This document shows, piece after piece, positions 8,314 through 60,835 of a stretch of 64,000 nt of DNA. How positions within the stretch are numbered: the first letter of the stretch is position 1; each line of letters opens with the position of its first letter. Both the position numbers and the translations under genes were made by a program. Source of the stretch: an uncultured Anaeroplasmatales bacterium (GTDB lineage Bacteria > Bacillota_I > Bacilli_A > Acholeplasmatales > JAEDCM01); assembly GCA_964634685.1 (NCBI GenBank), contig CAZWLD010000003.1:784-64783 (forward strand), in the 5' to 3' direction. The notes below the pieces were generated by a model. It was not told where the DNA came from, ran no database searches, and saw nothing but the letters and a program-made list of their open reading frames with translations.

Positions 8314-9271
8314 TAGGATCAACCTCCTCATATTTAATGCCCTTTAGCTTAAGGTATTTCTTTAATTTTTCAATATCCTCTTGATAATAAGGAAGCTTGA
8401 AAATCATCTGTCCATAAACCTTTTCATTGACGGTTTTACTATCAGCATAGACAATTGAAACTAAAATATTACAATCCTGAATGATATTACAAATAATTGG
8501 TGAATCAACCTCACCATTAAAGATAAGCTTGATTAATTTATTGTCATTGAGCTTAGTATTTAGATGTCCTGAATAAATAAGCTTCTTGGCAATTTCATTT
8601 TGCGGTGAAAGGAATACATCATACATCAATCCGTTTTCTACAATCCTTGAATTATCAATGATTGCGACCTTATTACAAATAGCTTCAATTACTGACATTT
8701 GATGGGAAATAATGATGATTGTCAATCCTAATTCTTTATTTAATTCCTTTAATAAATTCAAAATTGATTTTGTTGTATCCGGGTCTAAGGCACTAGTTGC
8801 CTCATCACAAAGCAACACCTCAGGCTTTGTCATCAAAGCCCTAGCGATGGCAACTCTTTGTTGTTGGCCTCCGGATAGGGTTGATGGATAGGCATTGAGC
8901 TTATCACCTAAACCAACAAGATTTAACAATCTAATTGCCTCTTCCTTTTTTGATTTATCCTTTATCAACTCACCAGCCAATTCAACATTTTTTAAAACGG
9001 TCCTTTGCTGGAGCAAATTGAATGATTGGAAAATCATCGCTACCTTTCTTCGATAGCTTCGATCAAAGCTTGCAGGCTCTCCATTATATAATAATTCACC
9101 AGAATCAAATTTTTCTAAACCATTAATACATCTAACAAGAGTCGATTTACCAGCTCCAGATAATCCAAGAACGCCGTAAACATCACCAGCCTCAATGCTT
9201 AAATTGATATCAGATAAAACCATATGCTCGCCATAGCTTTTACTGACATTTTTTAATTCAATAAGACTCAT
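8300..9271 (-). CDS. metN: Methionine ABC transporter ATP-binding subunit with NIL domain
   Basis: GLSGAGKST, LSGGQQQRVAIARAL, LLCDEATSALDP and a C-terminal NIL-like domain. Confidence 0.92.
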   Translation of the reverse strand: MSLIELKNVSKSYGEHMVLSDINLSIEAGDVYGVLGLSGAGKSTLVRCINGLEKFDSGELLYNGEPASFDRSYRRKVAMIFQSFNLLQQRTVLKNVELAGELIKDKSKKEEAIRLLNLVGLGDKLNAYPSTLSGGQQQRVAIARALMTKPEVLLCDEATSALDPDTTKSILNLLKELNKELGLTIIIISHQMSVIEAICNKVAIIDNSRIVENGLMYDVFLSPQNEIAKKLIYSGHLNTKLNDNKLIKLIFNGEVDSPIICNIIQDCNILVSIVYADSKTVNEKVYGQMIFKLPYYQEDIEKLKKYLKLKGIKYEEVDPNGLE

Positions 9272-9294
9272 TAAATGCACCTCCTTAAAAATAT

Positions 9295-9565
9295 AAAAAC
9301 TCGCCCCTAATATAAGGACGAGTGTATCTCGTGTTACCACCTTACTTTATTATTATCCTTGCGAATAATAATCTCACTAGCTACTATCATAGCATATCGC
9401 TTTAACGGGCGAACTCGTTATACCCTAATCATATTGACTCGAATATACAACTCCAAGGCCATGTTCAATTAGCTTTCCTATGCTTGCTTTCACCTTTCCA
9501 AGCTCTCTAAAATAGTATTTCTAATTTACTCTTCTCTTCAACGTCTTTAATTGGTTTATTAAATT
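9295..9565 (-). ncRNA. T-box riboswitch, Met specifier
   Basis: Minus strand: stem I AG-bulge/GGTGAAAGC, specifier GAAC-ATG-GCC (ATG at 9462-9460), T-box AAGGTGGTAACACG (9343-9330), then terminator hairpin 9323-9299 and U-run. Confidence 0.88.
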
Positions 9566-9773: not shown

Positions 9774-12700
9774 TTAGTTTGCTTTTTTAAATTTCACAAA
9801 TACTAATGCAGCACCACCAGCAATAGTTAATACCATAAATACAATTGATACAACCATACATACTTGAGCAGTATTAGCTTTGGCAGTAGCGGCTTTTAAT
9901 GCAGCCTCGGCAGCAGCTTGGGCAGCTTCAGCCTTAGCTTGAGCATCAGTTGCAGCAGCTTTATCAGCATCAGTAGCATTTTGAGAAGCTTCAGCAGCAT
10001 TCTTAGCAGCAAGAGCAGCATCCTTTAATGTATTAGCTTCATTGCGAGCAACCTCAGCAGCAGCTTGAGCAGCAAGAGCTTGAGTTCTTAAGCTTTCCGC
10101 ATCAGCCTTGGCAGCCTCGGCAGCAGTTTGAGCAGCAAGAGCTTGAGCTTTTAGAGTTTCTGCTTCATTCTTGGCAGCAAGAGCAGCAGCCTTTAATACA
10201 GCAACCTCTTCTTTTGTTGCAGTAGCACTTGCTAAAGCAGCTTCAGCAGCAGCTTGGGCAGTTTCAGCAGCTGTTTGAGCTTCTTCAGCAGCAGTTTGAG
10301 CGGCAACAGCTTTGGCTTGAGCCTCTTCAGCGGCTGTTTGAGCGGCAGCAGCTTGAGCTTTTAAGGTTTCTGCTTCAGTCTTGGCAGCTTCAGCAGCTTC
10401 TTGAGCAGCTTCGGCAGCAGCTTGGGCAGCAAGAGCAGCAGTTTTGGCTTCTTCAGCAGCAGCTTTTTCAGCTTGAGCTTCAGCTAAAACACCTAATACA
10501 GTAATATAATTCTCCGCAAATTCAAGATAATGAATATTCGTAATTGATGCTTTTTGGGTTTCAGTTAATGATTCATAATGAGCACGAATAGTCGCAACTA
10601 CTTCTTTATCAGCTAAAGTAAGAGATGTGTAATCCTTGCATGAATTAACTTCCTCTTGAACCTTTGCAATATCTAAATCCTCACCATCATAAACAACTAA
10701 TTCGTCTGGAGCAAATGTACCAGCAGGGAATTGTCCGGCTAAAACGTCAGTAAAGTCTGCCATCCAATGAGCTCCAACCTCATAGTTTTGAGGAAGGTTA
10801 GTATTAAAATCTTTGACATAATCGGTTGTTAATACATCTTTGGATACGAATAAATCATATGATGGATTAGTCTTAAGATCTTTTAACATTACAAATTTAA
10901 CATTTCCAATTGATTTAGTTTCTTCTGATGGACTTACAAATTCAGTTGTGCTATTTGTGAATGTTGTATATGCTAAATATCCGTTTTCAGTGAATGTACC
11001 ACCAACTAAAACTGGAACGGCATCACCTTTACAAACTACATAACGTAAATTTGGACAATTATTGAAGGCATTTTCACCAATACGCTTTAAGCTTGCAGGT
11101 AAAGTAACTGAACCAAGTGTTTCATTTCCAGCAAAGACACCATTTGCAATCGCAACAACACCATCTGGGATAACAACATTTCCACCTTCACCATTGTAAG
11201 CTGTTAAAACATTTGAAGCGTTAACAACAAATTCAGGAGCACCTGGATCTGGAGTACCTTCTGCTGTTGTAACATTTACTGTGTTTTGATTTAACGCATA
11301 TGAAGTAGGTTCAGCTTCGGCACCAATCTCAATAACATAATCGTTTTCATTGAATGCATAATCAACGAATCCTAGATAGAATCCACCATTTGCGGCAGCA
11401 TCATCATAAATATCAGTAATATCAATCTTTTGAGTTACTACTTGATTCTTTTCAGTAGCTGTACTTGCAACATCAAAATATGAATTGAATTCAGCATCAT
11501 AAAGGCAAATTGCTTGAACATAGTAATTATCCCAATATGTTACTTCTAAATAATATTTATCACCCTCTTGGGTAATCTTGTGATCTAACATTGTTGATAA
11601 TTCTTGGTCAACAACGATATCAATGCTTTGAGAATCAGAATAAGTAAGACCATCTGATCCAGTCCACTCTGCATCCATAACAACTTCGAATTCCATATTA
11701 TTCTTCATATAATCTGGTAAAAATTTATTCATATTGGCATAGAAATTACTATATGTATATGAGTTAAAAGCACTATATTGTGGTAAGAAATATGATTGTC
11801 GTAAGAAATAATTATAATCGAAAGGTGATAAATTCTCTCCTGTTACCTTATCATAAACACTAAATTCTTGATAATCAACATTCTTTAGCATTGAGAATTG
11901 ATATGAATATATTCCATAGAAGGTTCCAAAATTGCTATTTTGATTTACAGCACCATTAATGACGAAGGTACCATCAAATGGAGCAGGCTCATATCCTTTC
12001 TTGAAATTGAAAACCTCTTCAGCAAAAGTTGATTGATCTATCGTATAGAATTTACCATTTTGAAGGAATAATGAAGTAACAGTTAATCCATCTTTACTAA
12101 TGAAATCTTGACCAAAATCCATTACCTCTTCCCATGGAGCAATATCAAAGGCTGGGCTTGCATCATAATCACCATAGAAGGCAAGGAATGGAACACTTAA
12201 TGTTACATCACCAGTTAATGAAACAAATCCTTCAATATATGTACCATATTTGAAGATGAAATCATATGATTCCTTATCCTCATCACTAAGGGTTACTGTT
12301 ACTGTTACCTTAGCAGTACCATTAGCATTAACAGTGACAACTGAACCAGCTAAAGATCCAGCACCAGCTACGCTATATTCAACTAATGAATCAGATAAAA
12401 CACAATCAAATTCCTCTAATGACACGCCATAGTTAGTATCTAATCCCATAACTAATGTCGAAATATCAAAGCTTGCAGCATTAGCTTCATCCATATTAAC
12501 TAGGTTGAAGGTCATTTCATAAACACCAGTTTTAGAAGCATCCTTTCCAAGCTCTAGCTTAACACGGTCAGTTCCATCAACAGTGATATATTGCTTTGTT
12601 GTTGTCGCAGCTGCTAGGTTAACTAAACCAGCACCTTGTTTACGTGGTGAATAAACATTACCATCTTCATTAGCAACAACAGTAGCTGTACCCATTAATA

Positions 12701-14765
12701 ATTGATATGTTAATGTGTTTGCCGCAACAGGATCAACTACACCTAAGACTTCACGAACATATTGCTTAACAACAACAGTTGAACCGGCAGTATTAGGAGA
12801 AGCCATTGAGGTACCACTCATTAATACATACTTATTACTTTCAGCATCAGCATATGGATATGAACTCCAGACTTCTCCACCAGGAGCGGTAATTTCTGGT
12901 TTTAATTTAAGGTTAACATCACCCCAAGATGAGAAGATTGACATATCAGGGATTGTTTTTTGATTAGCAGGATCAACAGTTAATGTTTTTGTATCTGCAG
13001 CTGCTAAAGCATCTCCATATTCCTTTGTAACGGCACAAATAGGGAATGTAGCAAGCCTAGAATATTCAGTAACAACATTTCCTTCTTCATCAGTAACATC
13101 GATTGCTTCTGCTACAGGGCTTAGTGCACCAGCTGCATTGTTATAAATTACACAAGCGATAGCTCCAGCATTTAAAGCATTGAAAGCTTTATCTTGGAAA
13201 GAAAGTGATCCACGTTGAACTAAGGCAATTTTTCCTGTAACATCAACAGCAGCAAATTCTTCGGCTGAACCAAGACCACAATCAACATATTCATAAGTTC
13301 CTTTACCATTGGCATTACAGAAATCACGCATAAAGTCACCATAAACATTGTTAGTTTGGTCTTTTACAGACTCATTATAATACATTTCAGTTCCATCAGC
13401 GCTAACTAGCTTATATGCTGCAACATTTAAGGTATCAATACTTGCGACTGTAAGTGATGCTGGATAACTACTTGGAGAACCGATTGAACCGATATTATAG
13501 CCACTAGTTGTACCATAGTTTCCATACATACCACCATATGAAGAGCTATATGAGTTTCCTGCTGAAACACATAAAGCGATACCTTGAGCTACAGTAGCCT
13601 CATAAATAGCATCAATTGGTGTAAATGTATCAGTATCATAATCTACCATTGGCTCATAGAAGCTAAATCCAGATGCTGAACCTAAGCTCATATTGATAGT
13701 ATCAACACCAAGCAAAGTTGCATCCTCAATAGCAGCTAAGATATCAACGGTAGCCGCACCATTGTCGTTATCAGAGAAAACCTTGAAAATAGCTAATTGC
13801 GCATCCTTAGCAATACCAAAGAAATCAACACCGTTGTTTCCGGCAACAGTACCAGCAACGTGAGTTCCGTGACCATTTCCAAATTCCTCTAATGTTTCAA
13901 AGCATGGAGTTACATTGCAATCATTATCAGCATAGTCGAAGGCATAAGCAACCTTATTACCAACAACAACATCAGCAACAGCAAGAGTTCTTGCTTCTTC
14001 TCCTTCGCCAACAGTTTCATATCTTTCCTTAGCATTTAAACTAGCAAGAACAGCTTCAACATCAGAAGATGTAAGAGCAGGTGTTCCTGTATAGAATTCA
14101 TCACTGAAGGCCTCATGATCAACCATTAATCCGGTATCAATGATAGCCGCAACCATACCTGAACCAGTATATTCAAGATCGGTACCATTCATCTCACCAC
14201 GACCAGTGCTTGTACCATTTGCATCGTAGGATACAACATCACTAGCATCAAGGCTATAGATTTGAGATAGATAGACACCTTCAACTCCACTAATCTTGGA
14301 AATTGACTTGATATCCTTAACTTTAACAGTCATTGCAAAACCGTTAAATAAATTTGTATAAGAATACTTATATTCAGGCTTATAGGCTAAACCTAATTTA
14401 TTAATTGAATTTTTAACCTTTGTTTGAGTTGCTAATATTTCACCAACGGCCTTAACGCCATCAGTTGTATTAACATATTCAGACAATTTTTTGTTTACTG
14501 ATACCTTTGAAACCAAAGCGTCACCTTTTGTTTTAACAATTACATCAACAAAAGAATCTTCATCAAGCTCAACGATATCATCATCGGCAACAACACTAGC
14601 ATTTAAAAGATTCGCAAAGATATCTCTTTCCTTGTCTCTTTCAACTTGAGTGGCTGTCGAAGCGATTGTTTTAACATTTTTCGCAAGAACACCAGTTGTC
14701 GCTAAGGTCATAACACCAAGAGCAACTGCTGTCAATGCGGTTGTTAATTTTTTCAAAACTTTCAT
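9774..14765 (-). CDS. Cell-surface S8 serine proteinase (lactocepin/C5a-peptidase-like) with PA domain, short BspA-LRR insert, Ala-rich coiled-coil stalk and C-terminal TM anchor
   Basis: Signal peptide; triad IIDTG / HGTHVAGT / GTSMASP; PA insert (GKIALVQRG); IPDGVVAIANGVF LRR; about 200 aa of A/E/Q/K heptads; hydrophobic C-tail ending KFKKAN. Confidence 0.9.
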   Translation of the reverse strand: MKVLKKLTTALTAVALGVMTLATTGVLAKNVKTIASTATQVERDKERDIFANLLNASVVADDDIVELDEDSFVDVIVKTKGDALVSKVSVNKKLSEYVNTTDGVKAVGEILATQTKVKNSINKLGLAYKPEYKYSYTNLFNGFAMTVKVKDIKSISKISGVEGVYLSQIYSLDASDVVSYDANGTSTGRGEMNGTDLEYTGSGMVAAIIDTGLMVDHEAFSDEFYTGTPALTSSDVEAVLASLNAKERYETVGEGEEARTLAVADVVVGNKVAYAFDYADNDCNVTPCFETLEEFGNGHGTHVAGTVAGNNGVDFFGIAKDAQLAIFKVFSDNDNGAATVDILAAIEDATLLGVDTINMSLGSASGFSFYEPMVDYDTDTFTPIDAIYEATVAQGIALCVSAGNSYSSSYGGMYGNYGTTSGYNIGSIGSPSSYPASLTVASIDTLNVAAYKLVSADGTEMYYNESVKDQTNNVYGDFMRDFCNANGKGTYEYVDCGLGSAEEFAAVDVTGKIALVQRGSLSFQDKAFNALNAGAIACVIYNNAAGALSPVAEAIDVTDEEGNVVTEYSRLATFPICAVTKEYGDALAAADTKTLTVDPANQKTIPDMSIFSSWGDVNLKLKPEITAPGGEVWSSYPYADAESNKYVLMSGTSMASPNTAGSTVVVKQYVREVLGVVDPVAANTLTYQLLMGTATVVANEDGNVYSPRKQGAGLVNLAAATTTKQYITVDGTDRVKLELGKDASKTGVYEMTFNLVNMDEANAASFDISTLVMGLDTNYGVSLEEFDCVLSDSLVEYSVAGAGSLAGSVVTVNANGTAKVTVTVTLSDEDKESYDFIFKYGTYIEGFVSLTGDVTLSVPFLAFYGDYDASPAFDIAPWEEVMDFGQDFISKDGLTVTSLFLQNGKFYTIDQSTFAEEVFNFKKGYEPAPFDGTFVINGAVNQNSNFGTFYGIYSYQFSMLKNVDYQEFSVYDKVTGENLSPFDYNYFLRQSYFLPQYSAFNSYTYSNFYANMNKFLPDYMKNNMEFEVVMDAEWTGSDGLTYSDSQSIDIVVDQELSTMLDHKITQEGDKYYLEVTYWDNYYVQAICLYDAEFNSYFDVASTATEKNQVVTQKIDITDIYDDAAANGGFYLGFVDYAFNENDYVIEIGAEAEPTSYALNQNTVNVTTAEGTPDPGAPEFVVNASNVLTAYNGEGGNVVIPDGVVAIANGVFAGNETLGSVTLPASLKRIGENAFNNCPNLRYVVCKGDAVPVLVGGTFTENGYLAYTTFTNSTTEFVSPSEETKSIGNVKFVMLKDLKTNPSYDLFVSKDVLTTDYVKDFNTNLPQNYEVGAHWMADFTDVLAGQFPAGTFAPDELVVYDGEDLDIAKVQEEVNSCKDYTSLTLADKEVVATIRAHYESLTETQKASITNIHYLEFAENYITVLGVLAEAQAEKAAAEEAKTAALAAQAAAEAAQEAAEAAKTEAETLKAQAAAAQTAAEEAQAKAVAAQTAAEEAQTAAETAQAAAEAALASATATKEEVAVLKAAALAAKNEAETLKAQALAAQTAAEAAKADAESLRTQALAAQAAAEVARNEANTLKDAALAAKNAAEASQNATDADKAAATDAQAKAEAAQAAAEAALKAATAKANTAQVCMVVSIVFMVLTIAGGAALVFVKFKKAN

Positions 14766-21847: not shown

Positions 21848-22411
21848 CTATTCTTTATTTTCGAATTTTTCATTCAATTTGTTAATTCCATCGTTAATCG
21901 AAACAAGTAATTCATGGTCGGTTATTTCGGGTTTCTTTTCTTCAATCTCATCCTTAAAATATTCTGGGTATTTAGCCTTCAAGGATTCATAAAGAACAGC
22001 TCCCGGCTCATCATCCTCATCAAATAATTCGGGATGTTCTTTTTTGAGCTTCTTTAAATACTTTATTTTTTGCTTTGTATAGCGATTCTTAAGACCCGAA
22101 ATTACCCTAATTGTGACAAAAATGGAAAAGGCAATAATAAAGAAATCTAAGACACTTTGTAAAAAGGTTCCATATTGTAAAATAATTGCATCCTTAACTA
22201 CTTCACCATTTTCTACTACCTCTTGTACCAAAACTAAAGAACCACTTTTAATATTAAATCCACATAACGATGATATAAGCGGCATAATGATATCATTAGC
22301 TAAGCTTTTAACAATCGCTTGAAAGGACGCACCGATAATGATACCGATAGCTAAATCGATAATATTTCCGCGATTAATAAATTTTGCAAAATCCTTAAAA
22401 AACTTTTTCAT
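21848..22411 (-). CDS. mscL: Large-conductance mechanosensitive channel, copy 1 (long C-terminal insert)
   Basis: FAKFINRGNIIDLAIGIIIG and YGTFLQSVLDFFIIAF. Confidence 0.88.
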   Translation of the reverse strand: MKKFFKDFAKFINRGNIIDLAIGIIIGASFQAIVKSLANDIIMPLISSLCGFNIKSGSLVLVQEVVENGEVVKDAIILQYGTFLQSVLDFFIIAFSIFVTIRVISGLKNRYTKQKIKYLKKLKKEHPELFDEDDEPGAVLYESLKAKYPEYFKDEIEEKKPEITDHELLVSINDGINKLNEKFENKE

Positions 22412-22461
22412 ATAACCCTCCATCATAAACAAAGCCTCTTATGAAATAAGAAGCCTTGATT

Positions 22462-23047: not shown

Positions 23048-24586
23048 TCATTTTGATAATATTTCTAAGCCTTTATCTGTTACTAAAACCGTGTATTCAA
23101 ACTGCGCTGACAAGGAATAATCATCAGTATAAATGGTCCATTCATTATCCGAATCTAAAAAAACATCGTGAGTTCCAGCATTGATCATCGGCTCAATTGT
23201 AAAAACCATTCCCGGGGTAATAAGCATTCCGGTGTGTCGTCTTCCATAATGAACAACATCTGGTTCCTCGTGAAATAAAAGTCCGACCCCATGGCCCGTG
23301 CATTCTCTGACAACACTATATCCATTTTTATGAGCATGCTCGGTGATTATTCCCGAAATATCACCTAAGCGCATATAGGGCTTAACCAAAGAAACGGCCA
23401 AATCAAGGCACTCATGCGCCACTCTTACAAGTCGCTTCGCCTCTTTGGTCGGATTACCAATTATAAAGGTTCGCGATGCATCCGCAAAATAGCCATCCAC
23501 AATCGTCGTACAATCAACATTGATAATATCACCATTTTTTAAAATAACCCTTTTACTTGGAATACCATGACACACCTGCTCATTAACCGATGTACAGACA
23601 CTTTTCGGAAAACCTTCATAATGAAGGGGAGCTGGAATTCCCCCTAATTCTAGGGTTTTTTGATAAACCATTTGGTTAATATCCTCCGTTTTAAGGCCCA
23701 ATTTGATATTTGCCTCGACATAATCTAAGACAGCTGTGTTAATAATACCAGCCTTTCTTATTCCTTCAATTTGTTTTTCATTTTTTATCATATTATGTGG
23801 TGGAATGCCAATCCCCCGATTTTTATATTCATTTGCCTTGATATCATATTTATGATGACATTCGATATATGGCTTATTAGATCCACACCAACATAAATCA
23901 AGCTTGGGCAATTTATCTAAAAATTCTGATAGCTTCGATAAATTACCTTGATAGGTGGGATTAAAGGGAACATTTTTACTATTAATTAAAGTATCCGTTC
24001 GAATAAAGGCCTTGATACCTAATTCTTCGATTACCAAATCCTCCAAGGCATCATTCCCAACCATTAATATCTCTTCTTTATTGAGAGAAAACTTATTAAT
24101 TACTTCTAAAAAATATTCTTTGTTCGGCTTCGTAAAATGGCTATTTTCGTATGTTGTAATATGTTCAAAAAGTCCCGGATATAATCCTGCCCATCGGATT
24201 CTTTCATAGGTTGCGATTTGAGGAAAAATTGGATTTGTTAATAAAAACAAACGATAGCCCTTATCCTTCAAATTCATTAGGCTGTTATATATCGATAGGC
24301 TAGCACTGCACGCTTCCTTCGTTTTTAAGAATTCATTAATATAAAAATCTGTGAAAAATCCTTCTAAATGATAGGTATTTTGATCATCAAAAAAAGCTTT
24401 TTTGTTAGTGACTTTTCCGTCATTTTGATACATTGCTCGAATGCCGCTATCAACAATTTCGGAAATATTTTGAATATTTTCTAATTGGGCTTTCTTTTCA
24501 ATTTCTTCATAATAAATTCGTAAAAATTCCTTAACATCCATATTGAGTAAAGTTCCATCAAGGTCAAAAAAGATATTCTTAATCAT
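23048..24586 (-). CDS. map: HAD hydrolase - SEC-C - type I methionine aminopeptidase fusion
   Basis: FDLDGT and MVGND (HAD); CWCGSNKPYIECH (SEC-C); VCHGIP, INVDCT, FADASRT, GHGVG, FHEEP, TIEPM, AQFE (MetAP); one open frame. Confidence 0.85.
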   Translation of the reverse strand: MIKNIFFDLDGTLLNMDVKEFLRIYYEEIEKKAQLENIQNISEIVDSGIRAMYQNDGKVTNKKAFFDDQNTYHLEGFFTDFYINEFLKTKEACSASLSIYNSLMNLKDKGYRLFLLTNPIFPQIATYERIRWAGLYPGLFEHITTYENSHFTKPNKEYFLEVINKFSLNKEEILMVGNDALEDLVIEELGIKAFIRTDTLINSKNVPFNPTYQGNLSKLSEFLDKLPKLDLCWCGSNKPYIECHHKYDIKANEYKNRGIGIPPHNMIKNEKQIEGIRKAGIINTAVLDYVEANIKLGLKTEDINQMVYQKTLELGGIPAPLHYEGFPKSVCTSVNEQVCHGIPSKRVILKNGDIINVDCTTIVDGYFADASRTFIIGNPTKEAKRLVRVAHECLDLAVSLVKPYMRLGDISGIITEHAHKNGYSVVRECTGHGVGLLFHEEPDVVHYGRRHTGMLITPGMVFTIEPMINAGTHDVFLDSDNEWTIYTDDYSLSAQFEYTVLVTDKGLEILSK

Positions 24587-24767
24587 TATTACCCTCCTTA
24601 AATTGGTTTAAAGAGGATGAATAAAAATATCCTTCTTTATTTAATATTTCGTTTATTTCATCCTTTGATTCATCTAAATCATCGCATAAAGCATCAAGAC
24701 TATCATATTGATCGCGAAGCTTCATATTTAAAACGCTTAATAGCATTATTGGATTTTTTGGCAACAT
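24579..24767 (-). CDS. DUF4250-family small protein
   Basis: MLPKNPIMLLSVLNMKLRDQYDSLDALCDD pattern. Confidence 0.75.
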   Translation of the reverse strand: MLPKNPIMLLSVLNMKLRDQYDSLDALCDDLDESKDEINEILNKEGYFYSSSLNQFKEGNND

Positions 24768-24808
24768 AAAAATTCCTCCCTCATTAAAAAACGGCCTAGA
24801 TAGACCGT

Positions 24809-25567
24809 TTAATCTCTGTTATTAGCAAATAAGATAATTAAGATGCGTAATATTTGATAATATAAATAGATGATTGAAACCATTAAGCCTAAAGCTGAAA
24901 CCCATTCATATCGTTTATCAGCTCCACCTCTAACAACACTTGCCGCATCATCAAAATCAATAATCAAACAGAACGCTGCAACAAAGACACAGAATATTGA
25001 TACCAAAATGGAAACTAAACCGTATCCATAGAATAGCTCAGCTAATACAAAATTACCAAAGAAGCTAGCAATAGTCGCAACCAAGGATATTACCATGATA
25101 CTTACTAATGATATTAAAACAAATTTACGCATACGACCGCTTGCCCGAACTAAGCCCGTTGCATAAAAGAACAATGATACACCGAAAACAGTGATTGTCG
25201 CAAGAATAGCCGCCGAAGCAATCCCTGGATATACAGCATCACACAATGCGGTGATAACTCCTAGGCTAAGTCCTTCCGCCATCGAATAAATAATACTACA
25301 AGGCATCGCTGCTTTTAAGCTTCTGATACCAATCATCGCAGAAATGAAAGCCGCAATTGGCCCAATAATCAATAAAACATATAATAGCTTAACCGGAATA
25401 AATAAAGCTGCGACTCCAGTTGCTATAGATAAAAGAAAGCAAAGAAAGGTTTTTAAGCTAATTCCACCATAGGTTGCTCTTTCTCCACTATATTCAGATG
25501 AAGCTGTTTCTTCACCTACAACAATACTTCTAAACGCTGGATTTGATTTTTCATTCATAAATAACAA
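24809..25567 (-). CDS. Bax inhibitor-1/YccA family membrane protein
   Basis: Seven TM helices, LIIDFD and EWVSALGLMVSIIYLYYQILRIL. Confidence 0.8.
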   Translation of the reverse strand: MLFMNEKSNPAFRSIVVGEETASSEYSGERATYGGISLKTFLCFLLSIATGVAALFIPVKLLYVLLIIGPIAAFISAMIGIRSLKAAMPCSIIYSMAEGLSLGVITALCDAVYPGIASAAILATITVFGVSLFFYATGLVRASGRMRKFVLISLVSIMVISLVATIASFFGNFVLAELFYGYGLVSILVSIFCVFVAAFCLIIDFDDAASVVRGGADKRYEWVSALGLMVSIIYLYYQILRILIILFANNRD

Positions 25568-25631
25568 CTCCTTTTCATTTCATTATTAGTATATCATTAT
25601 TTTATGTGTTTTCTATGTGATAATTATAAAA

Positions 25632-26135
25632 TTAATCATTTAGATATTTTTGATATTGTTGATTTATTATTTTGATTATCGGCTTATATAGCCAAATGAT
25701 ACTCAAATATGTCGAAATCACCAAAATCAAGGTAAAAGGAATATCCGCAAGAAAATAAGCCAAAATATCAATTTCTAGAAAGAAAGCATTGGTAATTAAA
25801 AAGGATAAGGAATAAACAATAGCCCCTAATGATCCAAGTAAACCAATGATATATACATTATCTTTATGATAAGCTTTTTTTATAAGAATAGTGATTATAT
25901 ACCCAACAAGCATCGGGATAACAACAATCAGACTTAGGCTTCCCATTACCAAATTATCTAATAGGACATGAGCAAAAACAATCAAGGATGTCTTTCTAAA
26001 GCCTAAGCAATCGACATAACAAATTAATAATAGAAAAGTAAATTGAATATTAGGAAGAAAGGATAATGCCTCTTCTTGGACAAAAAGGACACAGGCAAGA
26101 AGGGCTAACAAAACAAGTATTTTTAAATTCTTCAT
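25632..26135 (-). CDS. ECF transporter S-component, CbrT (cobalamin)-like
   Basis: About 170 aa, highly hydrophobic, LPNIQ motif after TM1; co-transcribed with a DUF4430-like gene. Confidence 0.6.
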   Translation of the reverse strand: MKNLKILVLLALLACVLFVQEEALSFLPNIQFTFLLLICYVDCLGFRKTSLIVFAHVLLDNLVMGSLSLIVVIPMLVGYIITILIKKAYHKDNVYIIGLLGSLGAIVYSLSFLITNAFFLEIDILAYFLADIPFTLILVISTYLSIIWLYKPIIKIINQQYQKYLND

Positions 26136-26494
26136 ATTCTTGTCACCTTGAATTTTATTACATCCTTATCCTTTAATTCAATTTGTCTTATTCCCTTATT
26201 AGCATATAAATCATTTATATAAATGGCAATATAATCATTAACAAAATCGGTTTTGACATCATCAATCGAAAGAATAACATTTCCATCCATAACAATCGTA
26301 AAATTTTCATTCATTAGCTCAAATAAGGTTTGACCCTTTTGGAAGTTTAATTTTTTTTCATAAACTAATTCTTCATCATAAACCAAAATCAAGCATTGAC
26401 CATCATCATTAGCCTTAGGATTAATGGAAACAAAAACCACTAAGCCAACTAATAAAGAGACTCCTACGATTGTGATAATAATCTTTTTAAGCAT
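26132..26494 (-). CDS. Membrane-anchored DUF4430 (transcobalamin beta-domain-like) protein
   Basis: N-terminal TM, then TLFELM...ILSIDDV...YIAIYINDLYANKGIRQIELKDKDVIKF. Confidence 0.65.
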   Translation of the reverse strand: MLKKIIITIVGVSLLVGLVVFVSINPKANDDGQCLILVYDEELVYEKKLNFQKGQTLFELMNENFTIVMDGNVILSIDDVKTDFVNDYIAIYINDLYANKGIRQIELKDKDVIKFKVTRI

Positions 26495-27266
26495 AATATT
26501 GATAATAACAAAGCATTAAAAAGGCTTGAGGAGAGGCATAGTTATAATCAAAATCCTCATTATCTAGATTTCTAAAGGCTTTGTTTTCATAATAATGATA
26601 TATTTCTTCTAAATCGATTTTGTCCTTATTATCTGTTAATAGATAGCCTAAATAGGCAAAGCTCAACGAACAACAATTTTTCCCTGACCATGAGCTTGGA
26701 AAATTGTTTTTGATTTCATCGTCAATAAATGAAACAATATTTGATAAATCAATTTGATAATGAGCTAAGGCTAGAGCGCACATCCCTGCATAATCGCAAT
26801 CCTTATAGGTGGCATTATCAAAATCCTTGACATAATTGATATAGTCTTCATCTTCAATATCAAGTAAAGCTAAAGCCCACAAGGTAAAAGCCATTCCGTA
26901 ATCGTAGCTTGGCTTTTCCTTTGTTAAGATGATGTCCTTGATATTTGATTCAAGGGAAAAGGCATCATAAATAATCGCGATTTTTGACAATAAATAAATA
27001 TCGGCATCCGCAATTAACGGATCGTAATAATCCTTGATTTGAAGCTTTAGCTCTTCATTCTTTAAAACACTTTCGTTTCCAATCATTTTTAAGCCTTGAA
27101 CGTAATAACAATCCGTATTATAATAGCCGGATTCATTGTAAACCATGATATATTTATCAGATTCACTAACCATTTCTTCAATTATCGTTTCATATTTTTC
27201 CGTTTTCTTGGTGGCACATCCACCCAATAGTATCAAGAAAAATAAACAGAGAATTATTTTTTTCAT
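26487..27266 (-). CDS. Lipoprotein with alpha/alpha-barrel (prenyltransferase/transcobalamin alpha-domain-like) repeats
   Basis: LGGC lipobox; helical repeats DYAGMCALALAHY, NCCSLSFAYLG, NYASPQAFLML. Confidence 0.5.
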   Translation of the reverse strand: MKKIILCLFFLILLGGCATKKTEKYETIIEEMVSESDKYIMVYNESGYYNTDCYYVQGLKMIGNESVLKNEELKLQIKDYYDPLIADADIYLLSKIAIIYDAFSLESNIKDIILTKEKPSYDYGMAFTLWALALLDIEDEDYINYVKDFDNATYKDCDYAGMCALALAHYQIDLSNIVSFIDDEIKNNFPSSWSGKNCCSLSFAYLGYLLTDNKDKIDLEEIYHYYENKAFRNLDNEDFDYNYASPQAFLMLCYYQYYA

Positions 27267-27351
27267 TTTTACTTCACCATAAAATATTTTACACTAAATA
27301 AAATATTAATTCTAGACAAATATGATATAATTGATTACGAGGTGAATATTT

Positions 27352-29157
27352 ATGCCTTTTTTACCAATGACAATCGCGGAAATCAAAGACCTTGGATGGG
27401 ACATGCCTGATTTCATCTATATTACAGGCGATGCCTATATCGATCATCCAAGCTTTGGTCCAGCAATTATTACGCGCGTTTTAGAAAATTTTGGCTATAA
27501 ATGTGCCATTATTAGTCAACCCGACATCAATAACGATGATGATTTTACAAAATTAGGAAAGCCAAGGCTTGCCTTTTTAGTGTCGAGCGGTAATATCGAT
27601 TCGATGGTTAATCATTATTCTGTTTCTTTAAAAAGACGAAAAAAAGACTTTTATACCCCTAATGGTGAAATGGGAAAACGTCCCGACCGAGCCGTAATCA
27701 AATACTGCAATAAGCTAAGAGATCTTTATCCTGATAGTGATATTATCATTGGCGGAATTGAGGCCTCCTTGCGAAGACTTGCCCATTATGATTATTGGGA
27801 TAATAAGGTCCGAAAATCGATTTTAATTGATTCAAAGGCGGATTTATTATTATATGGAATGGGTGAAAAAACAATTGTTAGTGTTGCGGATTGCCTTTCG
27901 GGTGGTCTAAGAGCCAAGGATATTATCTTCATTCGTAATTCTGTTTATAAAACTAATGATAAAGATTATTTACCAAGTGATGGTATCTATCTTCCAAGCT
28001 TCAAGGAAACCAAAACGGATAAGCTAAAATATGTTAAATCCTTCCAAATCCAATATGAAAATACCGATTGTTTCCACAGTAAGCCCTTGATTGAGGAATA
28101 TGATGATTGCTATATCGTTCAAAATCAACCCGAATTTCCCTTGTCACAGGAGGAAATGGATATGACCTATGCTCTTCCCTATATGCGAGCAGTCCATCCT
28201 TCTATTGAAGCGAAGGGACATGTTCCGGCTATCGATGAGGTTAAATTTTCCATTATCGCCAATCGTGGTTGCTTTGGTGGCTGTCACTTCTGCGCCTTAA
28301 CCTTCCATCAAGGACGAATCATTCAATCAAGATCGAAGGAATCGATCGTAGAGGAAGCCAAATTATTAACCGAGGATAAAGACTTTAAAGGCTATATTCA
28401 TGATATTGGTGGCCCAACCGCAAATTTCTATAATCCGGCTTGTAAAAAACAGCTTAAGCATGGAATCTGTACAAATAAAAGCTGTCTTGGCTATAATCCT
28501 TGTAAAAATTTAGAGGTAAGCCACGAGCAATATCTAGATATTTTAAAGGAAGTGCGCAATCTCCCGAAAATCAAAAAGGTTTTTATTAGGTCTGGTCTTC
28601 GCTATGACTATATTATGTATGATAAAAACAAAGAATTTTTTGAGGAATTAGTCAAAAATCATATTTCTGGTCAATTGAAGGTAGCGCCGGAGCATATTGA
28701 TGATCGCGTTTTAGTTCGGATGGGCAAGCCCTCCCGCGAGCTCTATGATGAATTTGTTAAAACCTATCACGAGATTAATCAAAAATTCCATAAGGATCAA
28801 TATCTTGTGCCTTATTTAATGAGCAGTCACCCCGGATCAACCTTAGACTGCGCCATCAATTTAGCTTGTTATTTAAAGGAGACTGGTTATATTCCCGAAC
28901 AGGTCCAGGATTTTTATCCAACCCCGGGTACCGCTTCAACCTGCATGTACTATACGGGAATTGATCCCTTTACAATGGAAAAAGTTTATGTGCCCAAAAA
29001 TCCTCACGAAAAAGCGATGCAAAGAGCCCTCATTCAATTCAATAATCCAAGAAACTACGATTTAGTTTACGAAGCTTTACAAAAAGCCAACCGAATGGAT
29101 TTAGTTGGCTATGGGAAGCATTGCTTAATTCCACCACGAAAACCATCAAATAAATAA
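27352..29157 (+). CDS. ygiQ: YgiQ/UPF0313 radical SAM protein
   Basis: [12 protein letters not shown]-terminus, CFGGCHFC motif, and [12 protein letters not shown]. Confidence 0.92.
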
Positions 29158-29297: not shown

Positions 29298-30140
29298 TTA
29301 TTTTATGTTTTTTAATAACATCTCAGGCGTTATATCTTCTAATTTAGAAATAGTAAATCTTTTCTTTCCTATACTATTAAAGGAAGTTCCCATAGTGTAG
29401 GTTGTATTATCAATAATGATATACCTATCATGAAATACATCAGTATGAAATACTATAATATTATTTTTCACTTCACATTTATTTAAATATGAAGTTGAAG
29501 ATGTATATATAGAAACCGGAACGGTAATATTGACTAGCATATCAAGCAAAAACTGATCTGCATAATTATCAATTATTACAATTTGTTCCTTTGCCAAAAA
29601 GAATAACTTAATTAAAAAGGAATATGGCTTTAATATTTCCCCTTCAAATACAATTATGTTATTATCCGCATATATAGTTTGTTCAATATTCTTTATTCTG
29701 TTTTCAATATTAATATAATTAGCTTCTAATCTAAGAATATTTGATTGATAAGCTAATATTCTGTCATTGTTTATAGCATAGCCATTTAAAAGGTATTGCT
29801 TAAGAACACAATTAGCCCATTTTCTAAATAATATCCCCCTTTTGGATTTTACTCTATAACCAACGGAAATAATCATATCTAAATTATAGATTTTTGTCTT
29901 ATATTTTTTACCATCAGACGCAGTAATCGAGTATTCCTCGATAACTGAGTTATCCAACTCATTATCTGTGATTATGTTTTTAATATGAAGACTAATGTTA
30001 TCTACAGATACATTAAACAATTGAGACATTTGTTTTTGAGTTAACCAAACTGTATCTTCCTCAGGTGAAACATTTACATCCAAAGTAAAATCACCATCCT
30101 CAAATTTTATTAATTCATAAGTTTTCTTTTGATTATTCAA
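29298..30140 (-). CDS. RhuM-family protein with C-terminal PLD-like domain
   Basis: TVWLTQKQMSQLF and YNLDMIISVGYRVKS (RhuM); HDRYIIID...GTSFN (PLD-like); TTG start after GGAGG. Confidence 0.8.
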   Translation of the reverse strand: MNNQKKTYELIKFEDGDFTLDVNVSPEEDTVWLTQKQMSQLFNVSVDNISLHIKNIITDNELDNSVIEEYSITASDGKKYKTKIYNLDMIISVGYRVKSKRGILFRKWANCVLKQYLLNGYAINNDRILAYQSNILRLEANYINIENRIKNIEQTIYADNNIIVFEGEILKPYSFLIKLFFLAKEQIVIIDNYADQFLLDMLVNITVPVSIYTSSTSYLNKCEVKNNIIVFHTDVFHDRYIIIDNTTYTMGTSFNSIGKKRFTISKLEDITPEMLLKNIK

Positions 30141-40654: not shown

Positions 40655-43600
40655 CTATCCTAGAATTTGTTCTTTTGTTTTTGCATAAACAACATTAGCA
40701 TTAATTTGATTAACAACATTTACGCTTGTTGATGTGATGTTTCCAACTTGAGCGCTTGTCATTCCACCGGTAATGGTATTAATAGTCGTGATTTCACCAG
40801 TCGATCCATTATATTCAAATACTGACCAAAGACAGCCATTACCGCTTGGCGCATCAAATTCTTGAACTAAGGCTCCATTAATGTATAATGCAACATGAGC
40901 ATCAGAGGTTGAAATTCCATTTGAAGTTGTACTTCCACCATGGGTATAATCATAAACACTATAGCGATAGATTCCTTCTTGAAGTTCAAGAACTGTAATA
41001 ACCTCAGGGCCAAAGCTTGTTGTATCATCAATATCTAAATTTGTTCCTGTAGTTGGATCAACCTTGTTATAGTAATAAATATGATATGAATCAGTGCCAT
41101 TTGTATATGTCATATGTGAATCTAAATCCTTTGGATTTTCTCCCCATGTTAACACTACAATCATTTCACGGTCACTAAATTGATCAAGGATATCCATTTC
41201 AAGACTATTTAAGATAATTTCTTCATCACCATCAACTTCAATCTCAATTTGTTTTGAATAGCTACCGCTCGTAACATTTAAAACGTATGTTTCATTTGGA
41301 ATATTTTCAAAGCCAGCGCCGTAATATGTGCTAAGACCGCTATATAAAACATTACCAAATTCATCATTTAAGGTTGCTACGACCTCTAATCTTTCATTAT
41401 CACTGCCTAAAACTGTTACTCTTACAAGGTTTCCATCAACAAATCGAATTTCATAGCTACCAGCATTGTTATTCCAATTTGTTGCCTTTGTAATAGCATT
41501 CCATTCGGTTTCTAATCCGCGGAAGTAAATTAATTCAAGATTACTTGCCCCTGAGATAACATTGTCCCCAATGTTTTCCAAAGAAGCTGGTAAAGATATT
41601 TCTTTGATAGTTGTCAAATTACTAAATGCACCATATAAAACATCGGTTGCTCCTGAAATAATTTCAATTCTTTCTAAACCTGAAGGAATATAATAAGTTA
41701 CTGATTGTGTATCTGTGTATGATTGACTAACGGCAACACTTCCTGTATATGAGGTTTTACCAAAGATTACGCCAAATAATGTTGCGGCAGTTGGTGTAAT
41801 TGAATAACCATCAATTCCAACAAATGGCAATGAAATCTTTGTAACAGAACTACAGCCTTTAAACATTCCTTCTGCTAAAACCATTACCGTTGATGGAACT
41901 CTAATTTCATTAGCGTTACTACAATTTACAAAGGCATTAGATCCGATGGTCATTAAGCCTTCCTTCATAATGATTTCTTCAAGTGAAGAACAATTATAGA
42001 AGGCATATTCTGCGATTGTTAACACATTTCCAGGAATATCAAATTCCTTCAATGCAGTACAATTATAGAAAGCATAATCAGCAATTGTTTTGACTCCATC
42101 TCCACCTGTTACATATTGTAAGCTTGTACAATTATAGAACATTTTTGTTCCTATTAGACTTAAGCTATTTCCTAGATGGATACTTACTAATCCAGATCCT
42201 TCAAACACATTATTTCCAACATTCGTAATTGAATCAGGAATTGTTATACTCTTAATTGCTTTACAATTATAGAAGGCATAATCTCCTAAAGTAAGAAGAT
42301 TTTCATTTAAAATCACATTTTCAAGCTTTGTACAGCCATAGAAGGTGTATGCTCCAATTGCGGTTAGAGTTGAAGGAATTTCAATTCTTTCAAGTGATGT
42401 ACAGCCTCTAAAAGCACTAGCACCTAAATCAGTAATTTCTCCTAATTCAATATAGGTTAATTTTGTACAACCGTAGAAGGCTTCAGCGCCAATAATTTGA
42501 GCGGTTGAAATTGATAATCCTGTCAAAGCTGTACAATTTTTAAATGCACCAGTACCAATTGATTTAACATTACCAAGGGTTACATTGGCTAATTTATTAC
42601 AGCCTAAGAATACATAATTTCCTAGCTTTTCAATTCCTGAACCAATTTCTACTGATGCTAAAGAAGTACATCCATTAAATGCATAATCTCCAAGAGCAGT
42701 AATACCATTTCCAATTCTTATTCCTGTTAAGGAAGCACACTTAGCAAAAGCATAATTTCCAATTGTTTTAAGTGAATCAGCTATTCTAACTGAGGTAATC
42801 TTTGTATTATAGAACGCATATTGACCAATGCTTTCAATACTACTACCAAATTTAATTCCAGATAAATTTGTACAACCATAGAAAGCTCTATTCGCAATAC
42901 TTTGAACATTATCAGGTATTACAATTTGTGTGAAATTAGTACAACCTTCAAAGGCACTTTCACCAATACTTAATAATCCATTAGATAATGTTATCGATGA
43001 TATACCTGTACAACCATAGAAAGCATTTGCGCCGATCGTTGTTACATATTCTGGTAAAGTAAGACCAGTTAACTTCGAACATTTATAGAAAGCATATGTT
43101 CCAATTGTATTCAATTTTGAGCCAAAAGTAACAGTTCCTAAATTTGAACAGCCATTAAACGCATAATCTCCAATCGTTTTAAGGTTTTCGCCCAAACTAA
43201 CAGTAACTAAACCACTACAATTATTGAATGCGTAGCTACCTAATGTTGTGACACTATCGGGAATTGTAAATGAGGTTAAACCAGTGCATCCATCAAATGC
43301 ATAGGAACCGATACTTGTAATTTCGCCTCTACATTCAACTGTTCTTAAATTTGATAATCCACTAAACATACTATTAGGTATTGAAGTAATTCCACTACCC
43401 AAAACAATAGTTTCTAAACCGCTACATCCTCTTAATGCAGTTGAATCAATTGATGTAACACTATCAGGAATAACTAAATTAATAATATTTTTACAATTCA
43501 TAAATGCTCGTTCTCCTATACTTGTAATTGAATCAGAGAAGGATAAACTTGATAAATTTGTACAACCATCAAATGCATAGCTTGAAATTTTCGTAGGACC

Positions 43601-46600
43601 CACAACACTAATATTTGTTAAATTTGAGCAATTTTGGAACAAGTAGTCTGACATCGTTCCGTTTCCTGTTAAATTAACAATTCTTAAAGAAGATGGTACA
43701 TAATAAGTTGTATAATTCTGCACAGTGGATGTACCACCAGTATAGCTAGTTGTACCAAAAATATATCCAAAAGTATTCCCATTTAAAAGTGACAACGGTA
43801 ATGATAATTCATTTAAACTTGTGCATCCTTTGAGAGCTCCACTTATTTCACTACTAGTTGCGCCAACATACTTAACACTTTCAGGAATAATGATTTTTGT
43901 CAAGTAAGAACAATCTCTAAATGCATCAGAATAATATATTTGATTTGTTGTATCCTTTAATTCAAATGCTCCGGTATTATCTGTTGGTTTACCAAAATAT
44001 ATTTTGTTATTAATTAAATAATCATCCACAATTAAATTACTTGAAATTAATGTATCAACAATAACATCATTATTGTCTCCTATATATCCCAAAAGAGTAT
44101 CTTCACTTATATGTATTTCTATTAAATTTACACATCCATTAAATGCAGATGAACCAATATAGTTTACACTAGTTGGGATTTCCATGCTTATTCCTTTATA
44201 TCCACTAAATGCATATTCTCCTATGCTTGTTATTGTTGGATTATCCCATACTATATCACAAGTACAATTATAGAATACATATTCTCCTATGCTTGTTACA
44301 CTAGTTGGGATTTCTATACTTGTTAAACCGCTACAACCTTCAAATGCATAGTTTCCAATACTCGTTACACTTGAAGGAATTGTTATACTTGCTAATCCAC
44401 TACAATCATAGAATGCATGATCTCCTATACTTGTACAGCCTTCTAATATTTTTACTGTTTTCAAGCAGCTTGGAACATAATCCGCATTACGAAAAGAGCT
44501 GCTAGCACCAAATATATATCCTAAATATGATTCGTAGAAACCATTTCCGATAAATGGTAAAGTAATACTTTCCAAACTACAGCCACTAAATGCACTAATT
44601 CCTATTTCTGTTACACTTGATGGAATTACAATGCTTGTTAAACTACTACAATTCCTAAAAGCATAGTTTCCTATACTTTTTACGCTTGTTGGGATATCTA
44701 TGCTTGTTAATCCACTACAACCACTAAATGCACATTCTCCTATGCTTGTTACGCTTGTTGGGATTTCCATACTTATTCCTTTATATCCACTAAATGCATA
44801 TTCTCCTATATTTGTTATTGTTGGATTATCCCATACTATATCGCAAGTACAATTATAGAATGCACATTCTCCTATGCTTGTTACATTCTCTGAAACAGTA
44901 ATATTTACTAAATCACTACAATTATAGAACGAACCATACAATAAACTTCCTCCTAATACTGTTACACTAGTTAATGTTGATGGTATGTAATAAGTATCAG
45001 TTCTTGTACTTAAACCATAGTAATATTGTTCTGTGGCAACTCCTCCATCATAACTAATAGTACCAAATATATATCCAAATGGATATTGATAAGTGTCACT
45101 TGATGTTTTTATTCTTTCACCTATAAATGGTAATGTTATTGAAACTAAGCTACTACAACCACTAAATGCATATTCTCCTATGCTTGTTACGCTTGATGGG
45201 ATATCTATACTTGCTAAGCCACTACAACCTTTAAATGCATAATTTCCTATCCTTGTTACGCTTGATGGAATGTCCACACTGGTCAATCCTGTACAATTAT
45301 AGAATGCATAATTTCCTATGCTTGTTACGCTTGTTGGGATTTCCATACTTATTCCTTTATATCCACTAAATGCATATTCTCCTATACTTGTTATTGTTGG
45401 ATTATCCCATACTATATCGCAAGTACAATTTTTAAATGCATATATTCCTATGCTTGTTACACTAGTTGGGATATCTATGCTTGTTAATCCACTACAACCA
45501 CTAAATGCATATTCTCCTATACTTGCTACACTTGAAGAAATTACTACGGTTGATAAGTTACTACAACCACTGAATGAATACCCCTCTATACTTGTTACGC
45601 TATTTGGGATTTCTATGCTTGTTATACTACTACAACCACTAAATGCATATTCTCCTATGCTTGTTACACTAGTTGGGATATCTATTCTTGTTAATCCACT
45701 ACAACCACTAAATGCATATTTTCCTATGTTTGTTACGCTTGATGGAATGTCCACACTGGTCAATCCTATACAATTATAGAATGCATAATTTCCTATGCTT
45801 GTTACATTCTCTGAAACAGTAATATTTACTAAATCACTACAATTATAGAACGAACCATACAATAAACTTCCTCCTAATACTGTTACACTAGTTAATGTTG
45901 ATGGTATGTAGTATGTTCCAGATGTTATGCTACTAGTACTTGAACCATAGTAATATTGTTCTGTGGCAACTCCTCCATCATAACTAAAAGTACCAAATAT
46001 ATATCCAAATGGATATTGATAAATGTCACTTGATGTTTTTATTCTTTCACCTATAAATGGTAATGTTATTGAAACTAAGTTACTACAACCAATAAAGGCT
46101 GATTTTCCTATGCTTGTGACTCTTGTTGGAATTTCTATATTTGATAAATTACTGCAATATGCAAATGCATAATTTCCTATCCTTGTTACGCTTGATGGAA
46201 TTGTTATACTTGCTAATCCACTACAACCATAGAATGTATGATCTCCTATGCTTGTTACACTTGTTGGAATATCTATGCTTGTTAATCCACTACAACCTTC
46301 AAATGCAGAATTTCCTATGCTTGTTACACTTGATGGAATATCTATGCTTGTTAATCCACTACAACCTTTAAATGCGTAATTTCCTATGCTTGTTACATTA
46401 TCTGAAACAGTAATATTTACTAAATCACTACAATTATAGAACGAACCATACAATAAACTTCCTCCTAATACTGTTACACTAGTTAATGTTGATGGTATGT
46501 AATAAGTACTACTTTCTCTACTTGTTGTACTTGAACCATAGTAATATTGTTCTGTGGCAACTCCTCCATCATACCTAATAGCACCAAATATATATCCAAA

Positions 46601-58368: not shown

Positions 58369-58905
58369 TTAGTTAGCTTCTTTTTTTTCTTTTAAAAGCT
58401 CAACAATCTCTGCTAATAATTCTTCAGTTGTTGGCTTAACAACCTCAGGCTCTGGTTCTGGTTCAACTGCCTCAACGACAACTTCCTCTTCCTTTTGCTT
58501 TTTCAATTTTTCTTCGAATTCTTTACGCTTTTTAGCAAATCCATTTGCGACCTTTAAAATGATAAATAAAGTCAATGCGATAAAGAAGAAATTGATGATT
58601 GACTCAAAGAAGGCACTCCAATTGATGTAATTTAAGACAGTATAAGACTTACCATTAGGTCCTAAAACTGTCGCAGCGCCATTTGCAATATCCTCGGCAG
58701 TTGCTAAAACACTATTTGGCATAATTGTGTATAAGCATTCACCATCAGTAATGTAAGATAGTGCCCAGTTAACAACTGGCATCAAAATTTGTTTATTTAA
58801 GGTTGTGACGATGGTATTGAAGGCACCTCCGACAATAACACCGACAGCCATATCAAGAATGTTTCCTCTTGTAATAAATGCTTTAAATTCTTGAACTAAT
58901 TTCAT
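58369..58905 (-). CDS. mscL: Large-conductance mechanosensitive channel, copy 2 (long extracellular loop)
   Basis: EFKAFITRGNILDMAVGVIVGGAF and SIINFFFIAL. Confidence 0.88.
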   Translation of the reverse strand: MKLVQEFKAFITRGNILDMAVGVIVGGAFNTIVTTLNKQILMPVVNWALSYITDGECLYTIMPNSVLATAEDIANGAATVLGPNGKSYTVLNYINWSAFFESIINFFFIALTLFIILKVANGFAKKRKEFEEKLKKQKEEEVVVEAVEPEPEPEVVKPTTEELLAEIVELLKEKKEAN

Positions 58906-60820: not shown

Positions 60821-60835
60821 CTTTTTTTCCTCCTT

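Follow-up and report, generated by a model that had tools for sequence, protein, structure and literature searches.

Within a 64,000-nucleotide stretch of DNA from an uncultured Anaeroplasmatales bacterium (contig CAZWLD010000003.1; hereafter the window), we characterized a three-gene operon that probably scavenges and imports corrinoids (vitamin B12) for a gut bacterium, a wall-less-type, low-GC relative in the Bacillota that resembles Anaeroplasma or Acholeplasma. The operon encodes a lipoprotein predicted to fold as an alpha/alpha barrel, a small membrane-anchored DUF4430 protein that resembles CbrS, and a predicted S-component of an energy-coupling factor (ECF) transporter, distantly related to the B12 transporter CbrT. 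It lies divergent to ygiQ, and the locus is laid out as follows:

27266..26487, minus strand: operon gene 1, lipoprotein with an alpha/alpha-barrel model (259 amino acids; lipobox LGGC; from the list of open reading frames, ORFs)
26494..26132, minus strand: operon gene 2, membrane-anchored DUF4430 protein, CbrS-like (120 amino acids; Pfam PF14478)
26135..25632, minus strand: operon gene 3, predicted ECF S-component, distantly CbrT-like (167 amino acids; six-helix model, CbrT profile match)
27267-27351: divergent intergenic region of 85 bp between the operon and ygiQ, without a riboswitch
27352..29157, plus strand: ygiQ, radical S-adenosylmethionine (SAM) protein (TIGR03904)

The genes overlap one another, by 8 bp between the lipoprotein and DUF4430 genes and by 4 bp between the DUF4430 and S-component genes. 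Comparison with their orthologues in the closest relative, L001 (loci compared with the window are numbered L001, L002 and so on), which are 72-78% identical, gave ratios of nonsynonymous to synonymous substitution (dN/dS) of 0.13-0.20 for all three; this purifying selection argues that the ORFs are real genes rather than chance ones. Pfam scans that covered essentially every large ORF in the window returned no EcfA/EcfT pair, the only ATP-binding cassette (ABC) ATPases among them being MetN, two exporter half-transporters and one DrrA-like protein. Rfam found no cobalamin riboswitch at gathering thresholds in the whole window, nor at E ≤ 10 within 25400-27600, and the 85-bp spacer is too small for a cobalamin aptamer, being shorter than the ~170-200 nucleotides that such an aptamer occupies. 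The preliminary description of this DNA had reported three overlapping genes 85 bp from a divergent ygiQ, with neither an ECF ATPase or T-component nor a cobalamin riboswitch in view, and the coordinates, overlaps and scans agree with it throughout. A promoter and terminator scan of 24700-27500 gave matches not above shuffled expectation and was uninformative on the operon boundaries. The window sequence is present in bovine, pig and other gut metagenomes; we found no RNA-seq runs containing the locus, and the runs that matched look like DNA from gut metagenomes.

The AlphaFold2 (AF2) model of the gene 3 product, with a predicted local distance difference test score (pLDDT) of 94.6, has six transmembrane (TM) helices, and Foldseek matched it to the solved S-components RibU, FolT, ThiT, BioY and PanT (probability ~1, TM-score up to 0.74), whose ligands are riboflavin, folate, thiamin, biotin and pantothenate. 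As a single sequence, the gene 3 product matches nothing in Pfam, NCBIfam or the PDB. We collected 66 homologues, mostly from Acholeplasmatales, Anaeroplasmataceae and Erysipelotrichaceae, some of them annotated by JGI as "ECF substrate-specific component". Small-residue motifs of the AxxxA type in helix 1 of S-components serve for docking on EcfT; helix 1 of the window protein reads A11-L-L-A14-C15, with A at position i and C at i+4; in the family consensus, both are A. A profile of 42 of these S-component homologues had a single match among 177,635 PDB sequences, full-length to 6fnp_A (CbrT) at E=0.0017, and hhalign aligned the family with a CbrT-family alignment at 97.8% probability (E=9.8e-13, 169 columns, 19% identity), with an (L/I)PN(I/V)Q loop motif common to the two families. 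The 6FNP structure is that of ECF-CbrT, shown experimentally to be a vitamin B12/cobinamide importer of Lactobacillus delbrueckii (PMC5997447). Profiles and model together identify the window protein as a predicted ECF S-component of a distant CbrT-like family and, in comparison with the S-component families of solved structure, predict it to be corrinoid-specific.

The gene 2 product matches Pfam PF14478 above its cutoff (E=1e-8, 35.9 bits versus 23.8) over residues 54-118; ahead of this domain, N-terminal residues 1-28 form its one hydrophobic anchor. Searched directly against the PDB, the sequence gave no useful match. Transcobalamins end in a DUF4430 domain (PMC4350170); the name refers to the transcobalamin-type SLBB beta-grasp, which contacts B12 and in which a hydrophobic residue conserved in a beta-hairpin insert stacks against the B12 base (PMC1796856). 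Santos et al. 2018 mention an nrdJ-cbrS-cbrT-pduO cluster (PMC5997447). In L. helveticus, we found a 136-amino-acid DUF4430 gene between the class II ribonucleotide reductase gene (nrdJ) and cbrT, followed by a PduO-type adenosyltransferase gene, and this order implies that the DUF4430 gene equals the published cbrS. Using the S-component family as a probe, we assembled 71 genome loci and several metagenome contigs and mapped them with hidden Markov models for the three proteins; with L002 added, the genome loci make up 72 non-redundant loci. In almost every one of the 71 loci, as in L. helveticus, the gene immediately preceding that of the S-component encodes a DUF4430 protein, and we assign window genes 2 and 3, on this sequence evidence, to a cbrS-cbrT-like pair.

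DUF4430 plus S-component forms the near-universal conserved core of these loci. In seven of them, CbrS and the S-component are fused into a single ORF encoding 365-375 amino acids, with an extra TM helix between the domains (about residues 168-200) that keeps the topology of both consistent:

L008:7389-8495, CbrS-S-component fusion ORF
L009:7386-8504, CbrS-S-component fusion ORF
L012:7395-8501, CbrS-S-component fusion ORF
L013:7392-8501, CbrS-S-component fusion ORF
L018:7383-8483, CbrS-S-component fusion ORF
L023:5881-6978, CbrS-S-component fusion ORF
L035:7362-8489, CbrS-S-component fusion ORF

By the Rosetta-stone argument, these fusions indicate that CbrS works directly with the S-component. 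About 25 loci carry, upstream of a small CbrS and the S-component, a secreted protein of 390-480 amino acids in which a DUF4430 domain is followed by a barrel. The arrangement found in the window, a barrel-only lipoprotein followed by CbrS and the S-component, recurs in L010, L019, L026, L045 and L078, and L023 combines a barrel-only gene with a CbrS-S-component fusion; the barrel-only genes overlap or abut cbrS. To ask how the window DUF4430 relates to the receptor-fused kind, we compared 96 DUF4430 domains by their nearest neighbors: the window protein groups with the small class adjacent to S-components, and the receptor-fused domains form a group of their own, in which the nearest neighbor is also fused in 28 of 29 cases. 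This analysis led us to reject the window DUF4430 as a fission product of a fused receptor. The window thus pairs the constant CbrS with a barrel that lacks the cis beta domain present in relatives, rather than holding one gene cut in two.

A different DUF4430 fusion, with an AraC-type helix-turn-helix domain, occurs at L080:6768-7376 (Limosilactobacillus reuteri), near cbrT and a PduO adenosyltransferase gene; it is a candidate for the B12-sensing one-component regulators that Burroughs et al. 2007 predicted.

The genomic context of the orthologous operons points to B12 as the likely ligand. A cobalamin riboswitch lies just upstream of the operon, always on its strand, in 47 of the 71 genome loci as detected by nhmmer (47 of the 64 that have at least 300 bp of upstream sequence), including five of the six genome loci with the window's barrel-only architecture. 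The nhmmer profile was seeded from four Rfam-positive loci and agreed with Rfam wherever both were run; in all 18 nhmmer-positive loci tested with Rfam, the RF00174 aptamer is directly upstream of the first operon gene (65-108 bits versus a cutoff of 31.5). Within a few kilobases of the operon, we found metH in 12 of the 72 loci, a MetH activation domain in 10 and methylenetetrahydrofolate reductase in nine; no function other than a MetH-related one recurs as a functional partner in these neighborhoods. Two sets of recurrent neighbors were set aside, namely the Izemoplasma downstream genes rpsB, tsf, pyrH, frr, uppS and cdsA, which reflect housekeeping synteny, and a MatE-cytidylate kinase pair, a glycosyltransferase, FabA/KAS and a response regulator, which are unrelated to B12. 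The riboswitch usual for the family has been lost in the window lineage, so the operon is presumably expressed constitutively or under the control of the 85-bp divergent promoter region.

The gene 1 product begins MKKIILCLFFLILLGGC, in which we read the lipobox LGGC. Its AF2 model (pLDDT 92.8) consists almost wholly of helices, some 12 of them following the signal peptide, and its best Foldseek matches in the PDB, at probabilities of 0.99-1.0, come from intrinsic factor (3kq4_A, 2pmv_B) and from rat transcobalamin (8ixt, 8ixu). The predicted alpha/alpha-barrel fold is solid as judged from this model, and a specific kinship to B12 binders draws on the genomic context. By sequence, neither the window protein nor 17 relatives matched any Pfam family at E ≤ 1, Cobalamin_bind (PF01122) included, and no NCBIfam family was matched; against the PDB, the sequence found nothing meaningful, and the family profile returned signal-peptide-driven noise only. 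A word-indexed search recovered three close homologues and an exhaustive HMMER scan of 1.8 billion representatives recovered 15, and their alignment has the conserved motifs DxDYAG, SxWGxxNSxST and TPQAF. The dN/dS of this gene against L001 is 0.13. The labels that the preliminary description gave to the three products therefore hold: the lipoprotein has a confident alpha/alpha-barrel model, closest among solved structures to intrinsic factor and transcobalamin, the second protein is TM-anchored and DUF4430-like, and CbrT is the only solved relative of the S-component detectable by sequence. Its phrase "split transcobalamin-like receptor" calls for refinement, as it does not describe the evolution of the two genes: the window DUF4430 is of the CbrS class.

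Dispersed (group II) S-components normally use an ECF module encoded elsewhere (Rodionov 2009, as cited in PMC5997447). In the mechanism that we propose, the CbrT-like S-component would dock on such a shared module (EcfA/A'/T) and carry B12 across the membrane. CbrS, held by its one N-terminal helix, would expose a transcobalamin-beta-type (DUF4430/SLBB) domain on the outer membrane face and work directly with the S-component, most likely passing on captured corrinoid, and, at the cell surface, the lipid-anchored barrel would most likely form the other side of a clamp in which two chains hold B12, or else be the site of first capture. We tentatively suggest that the barrel and CbrS might close round one corrinoid as a two-chain bacterial "transcobalamin", after which CbrS would dock onto the S-component and let the vitamin pass into it. 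Consistent with such a clamp, barrel-only loci have one barrel per DUF4430, the barrel and cbrS genes are translationally coupled, and the barrel is paired in cis with DUF4430 in relatives.

Several observations weigh against this interpretation. About 27 loci consist of DUF4430 plus S-component with no barrel, so the core mechanism can do without one. The window DUF4430 is not of the barrel-fused class, which weakens the idea of a clamp formed in trans. The structural matches of the barrel are weak by E-value (0.03-0.1) and TM-score (~0.5), and toroids that do not bind B12 (squalene-hopene cyclase, complement C3d/TED, geranylgeranyltransferase beta) score nearly as well. The S-component has only 19% identity to CbrT, and Pfam models of ECF S-components do not match it. 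Neither the window nor L001 has a riboswitch or an adjacent B12-dependent gene, and the ECF module lies outside the window, its presence in the genome being assumed.

It is possible, if somewhat unlikely, that the barrel acts independently of CbrS, so that CbrS and the S-component are the core transporter and no heterodimeric clamp forms; the barrel could then be a surface store, a B12 binder that sequesters the vitamin from competitors, or a receptor for carrier-bound B12. The barrel-less loci and the seven CbrS-S-component fusions fit this alternative, and most relatives have a cis DUF4430 on the barrel itself, of a subclass other than CbrS. Against it stand the translational coupling of the two genes and the presence of exactly one DUF4430 per barrel in barrel-only loci, and in transcobalamin and intrinsic factor a lone barrel covers only one face of B12 (PMC1796856). 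The same two-gene alpha/beta layout is moreover found in L. sakei (10.1101/864751).

A further alternative, which we consider improbable, is that ygiQ is functionally coupled to the operon, YgiQ being a cobalamin-using radical SAM enzyme fed by the transporter. The gene product is a clear member of TIGR03904 (E=5.7e-252), and its Pfam content is limited to Radical_SAM_N, Radical_SAM and DUF3362; there is no match to the B12-binding domain PF02310, and weak NCBIfam matches to models of B12-dependent radical SAM enzymes are confined to the CX3CX2C iron-sulfur core (residues ~295-344). Apart from the window, ygiQ adjoins the operon only in L001, L017, L034, L040, L065 and L075, loci that form one clade with YgiQ identities of 75-89%. 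L017 has ygiQ directly next to the operon in the same orientation. The ygiQ-cbrS-cbrT block is the only one kept across five lineages in which the other flanking genes have turned over, a mild hint of linkage. In L034, L040, L065 and L075, however, the riboswitch lies between ygiQ and cbrS, downstream of ygiQ, which places ygiQ outside the B12-controlled unit. Searching 80 ygiQ-anchored metagenome loci (61-75% identity, 682 kb in total), we found no DUF4430, S-component, barrel or riboswitch within 5 kb of ygiQ, and Rfam, run on 12 of the 80, likewise found no riboswitch.

A protein called "YgiQ", SD_1168 of Shewanella denitrificans, does appear in a review of cobalamin-dependent radical SAM enzymes (PMC8950095), but it clusters with canonical B12-domain methylases (PMC9204698); its status as a "YgiQ" rests on these two reviews only, and the name could mislead annotation-based reasoning about the TIGR03904 family. 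The ygiQ neighbor probably plays no functional part in the uptake system, and the link looks incidental. The suggestion in the preliminary description that YgiQ uses cobalamin thus finds no support, the linkage recurring in one clade only and in none of the 80 ygiQ-anchored loci, and a tempting inference about an orphan enzyme is removed. That description had also named a "second" B12-domain radical SAM gene:

4669-6276, plus strand: class-B-type radical SAM protein with B12-binding PF02310, Radical_SAM and DUF4080, 20 kb from the operon

This protein does have the B12-binding domain, but it is the only such one that we detected, YgiQ being without the domain. It is a plausible consumer of imported B12.

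That the operon imports heme or another tetrapyrrole instead of B12 is likewise an alternative that we consider improbable. A heme role has been reported for the similarly composed lsa1836-1840 ECF operon of L. sakei (10.1101/864751), and no riboswitch connects the window copy with B12. The cobalamin riboswitches that control the orthologous operons, together with the metH neighbors in 12 loci, nevertheless tie the operon family to cobalamin rather than heme; among solved S-components, the B12 transporter CbrT is the nearest, and no heme-related gene recurs in the neighborhoods. That the three genes are chance neighbors or a decayed, functionless remnant is hardly credible: the riboswitch is lost and no ECF module is encoded locally, but the overlapping reading frames are intact, dN/dS against L001 is low, and the gene order recurs in the five loci named above.

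The proposed B12 operon combines elements of several known systems. Like ECF-CbrT of L. delbrueckii (6FNP, PMC5997447), it has a group-II-style S-component without an adjacent ECF module, although identity to CbrT is only ~19% and PF12822 and PF07155, which match CbrT homologues, do not match the window protein. Like the nrdJ-cbrS-cbrT-pduO cluster, it has a small anchored DUF4430 gene preceding the S-component and a B12-linked genomic context (in the case of the window, from its orthologues), but it adds the barrel lipoprotein and lacks nrdJ and pduO as neighbors. Burroughs, Balaji, Iyer & Aravind 2007 predicted B12 scavenging by bacterial SLBB-plus-toroid surface proteins in low-GC Gram-positives and described a second, paralogous SLBB protein in the same operons (PMC1796856). 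The window shares with those systems a surface SLBB (DUF4430-type) domain, an alpha/alpha toroid and a link to ECF-type (CbiO/CbiQ) transport; theirs are fused toroid-SLBB proteins with ATPase and T genes, whereas the window toroid is separate and the S-component is the only transporter subunit encoded locally. In L. sakei Lsa1836-1840 (Verplaetse et al., 10.1101/864751), separate transcobalamin beta-like (Lsa1839) and alpha-like (Lsa1840) secreted proteins accompany an ECF S-component, and a two-chain capture and hand-over model was proposed; that system includes A-A' and T components and is assigned to heme, and its likeness to the window is one of composition, not of sequence comparison.

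The animal carriers transcobalamin, intrinsic factor and haptocorrin have the same two elements, an alpha/alpha barrel and a DUF4430 beta domain, which sandwich B12 between them. Theirs is a single soluble chain with alpha before beta, in contrast to the two membrane-tethered chains of the window and to the fused bacterial relatives, in which beta precedes alpha. In Bacteroides, the surface lipoproteins BtuG and BtuH bind corrinoids in the gut for delivery to a membrane transporter. Here the analogy is functional only: their folds are unrelated to those of the window proteins, and the transporter that they supply belongs to the TonB-dependent outer-membrane proteins, not to the ECF family.

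To our knowledge, the S-component CbrT is the only component studied biochemically within this kind of system, and the role of CbrS was not studied in the ECF-CbrT work (PMC5997447). Already known are SLBB-plus-toroid proteins with an ECF link (PMC1796856), the cbrS-cbrT pair (PMC5997447) and separate alpha-like and beta-like proteins (10.1101/864751). New here are the identification of CbrS as a DUF4430 protein, the CbrS-S-component fusions, the CbrT-like S-component and barrel families that Pfam does not cover, and a quantified association of the operon with cobalamin riboswitches and metH. B12 is contested in gut communities, and its capture by Gram-positive and wall-less auxotrophs is poorly known. 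Textbooks present ECF vitamin transporters as importers that lack extracytoplasmic binding proteins; if the proposed mechanism is true, the ECF importers of this widespread Acholeplasma/Anaeroplasma/Erysipelotrichales/Izemoplasma family do use them. The locus and its 70-odd relatives provide a comparative case for CbrS and the transcobalamin-like barrel as accessory capture proteins of an ECF B12 importer, and they make testable whether ECF transporters have extracellular binders, how a ligand would pass from a beta-grasp/barrel clamp to an S-component, and whether such a bacterial system was the ancestor of animal transcobalamin.

Beyond the operon and ygiQ, we noted several other features of the window. 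A RhuM-family gene (29298-30140, minus strand) lies between ygiQ and smpB, where L001 has an APH-family gene, and a close homologue of it (E=3e-111) lies directly downstream of the S-component gene at an unrelated locus (L024:8581-9459, minus strand); it may be a mobile or defense-island gene that repeatedly lands beside the operon. A methionine ABC importer comprising metN (with a NIL domain), metI and metQ (an NlpA lipoprotein) occupies 6803-9550 on the minus strand, with a T-box leader at 9311-9550, and methionine import bears on the organism's need for MetH and B12. A second T-box leader (60859-61055) precedes the threonyl-tRNA synthetase gene (58919-61055, minus strand).

Three very large predicted proteins with domains of surface type are also encoded on the minus strand: a 2560-amino-acid protein with 21 BspA-type LRR_5 stretches (40655-48337), an LRR_5 protein of 950 amino acids that possibly continues past the end of the window (61102-63954), and a 1663-amino-acid S8 subtilase with PA, Fn3 and LRR_5 domains (9774-14765). 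There are two MscL paralogues (21848-22432 and 58369-58905, both minus strand), the first with a long charged C-terminal extension. An unusual 512-amino-acid fusion (23048-24586, minus strand) joins an N-terminal HAD hydrolase, a SEC-C zinc motif and an M24 domain of the methionine-aminopeptidase type.

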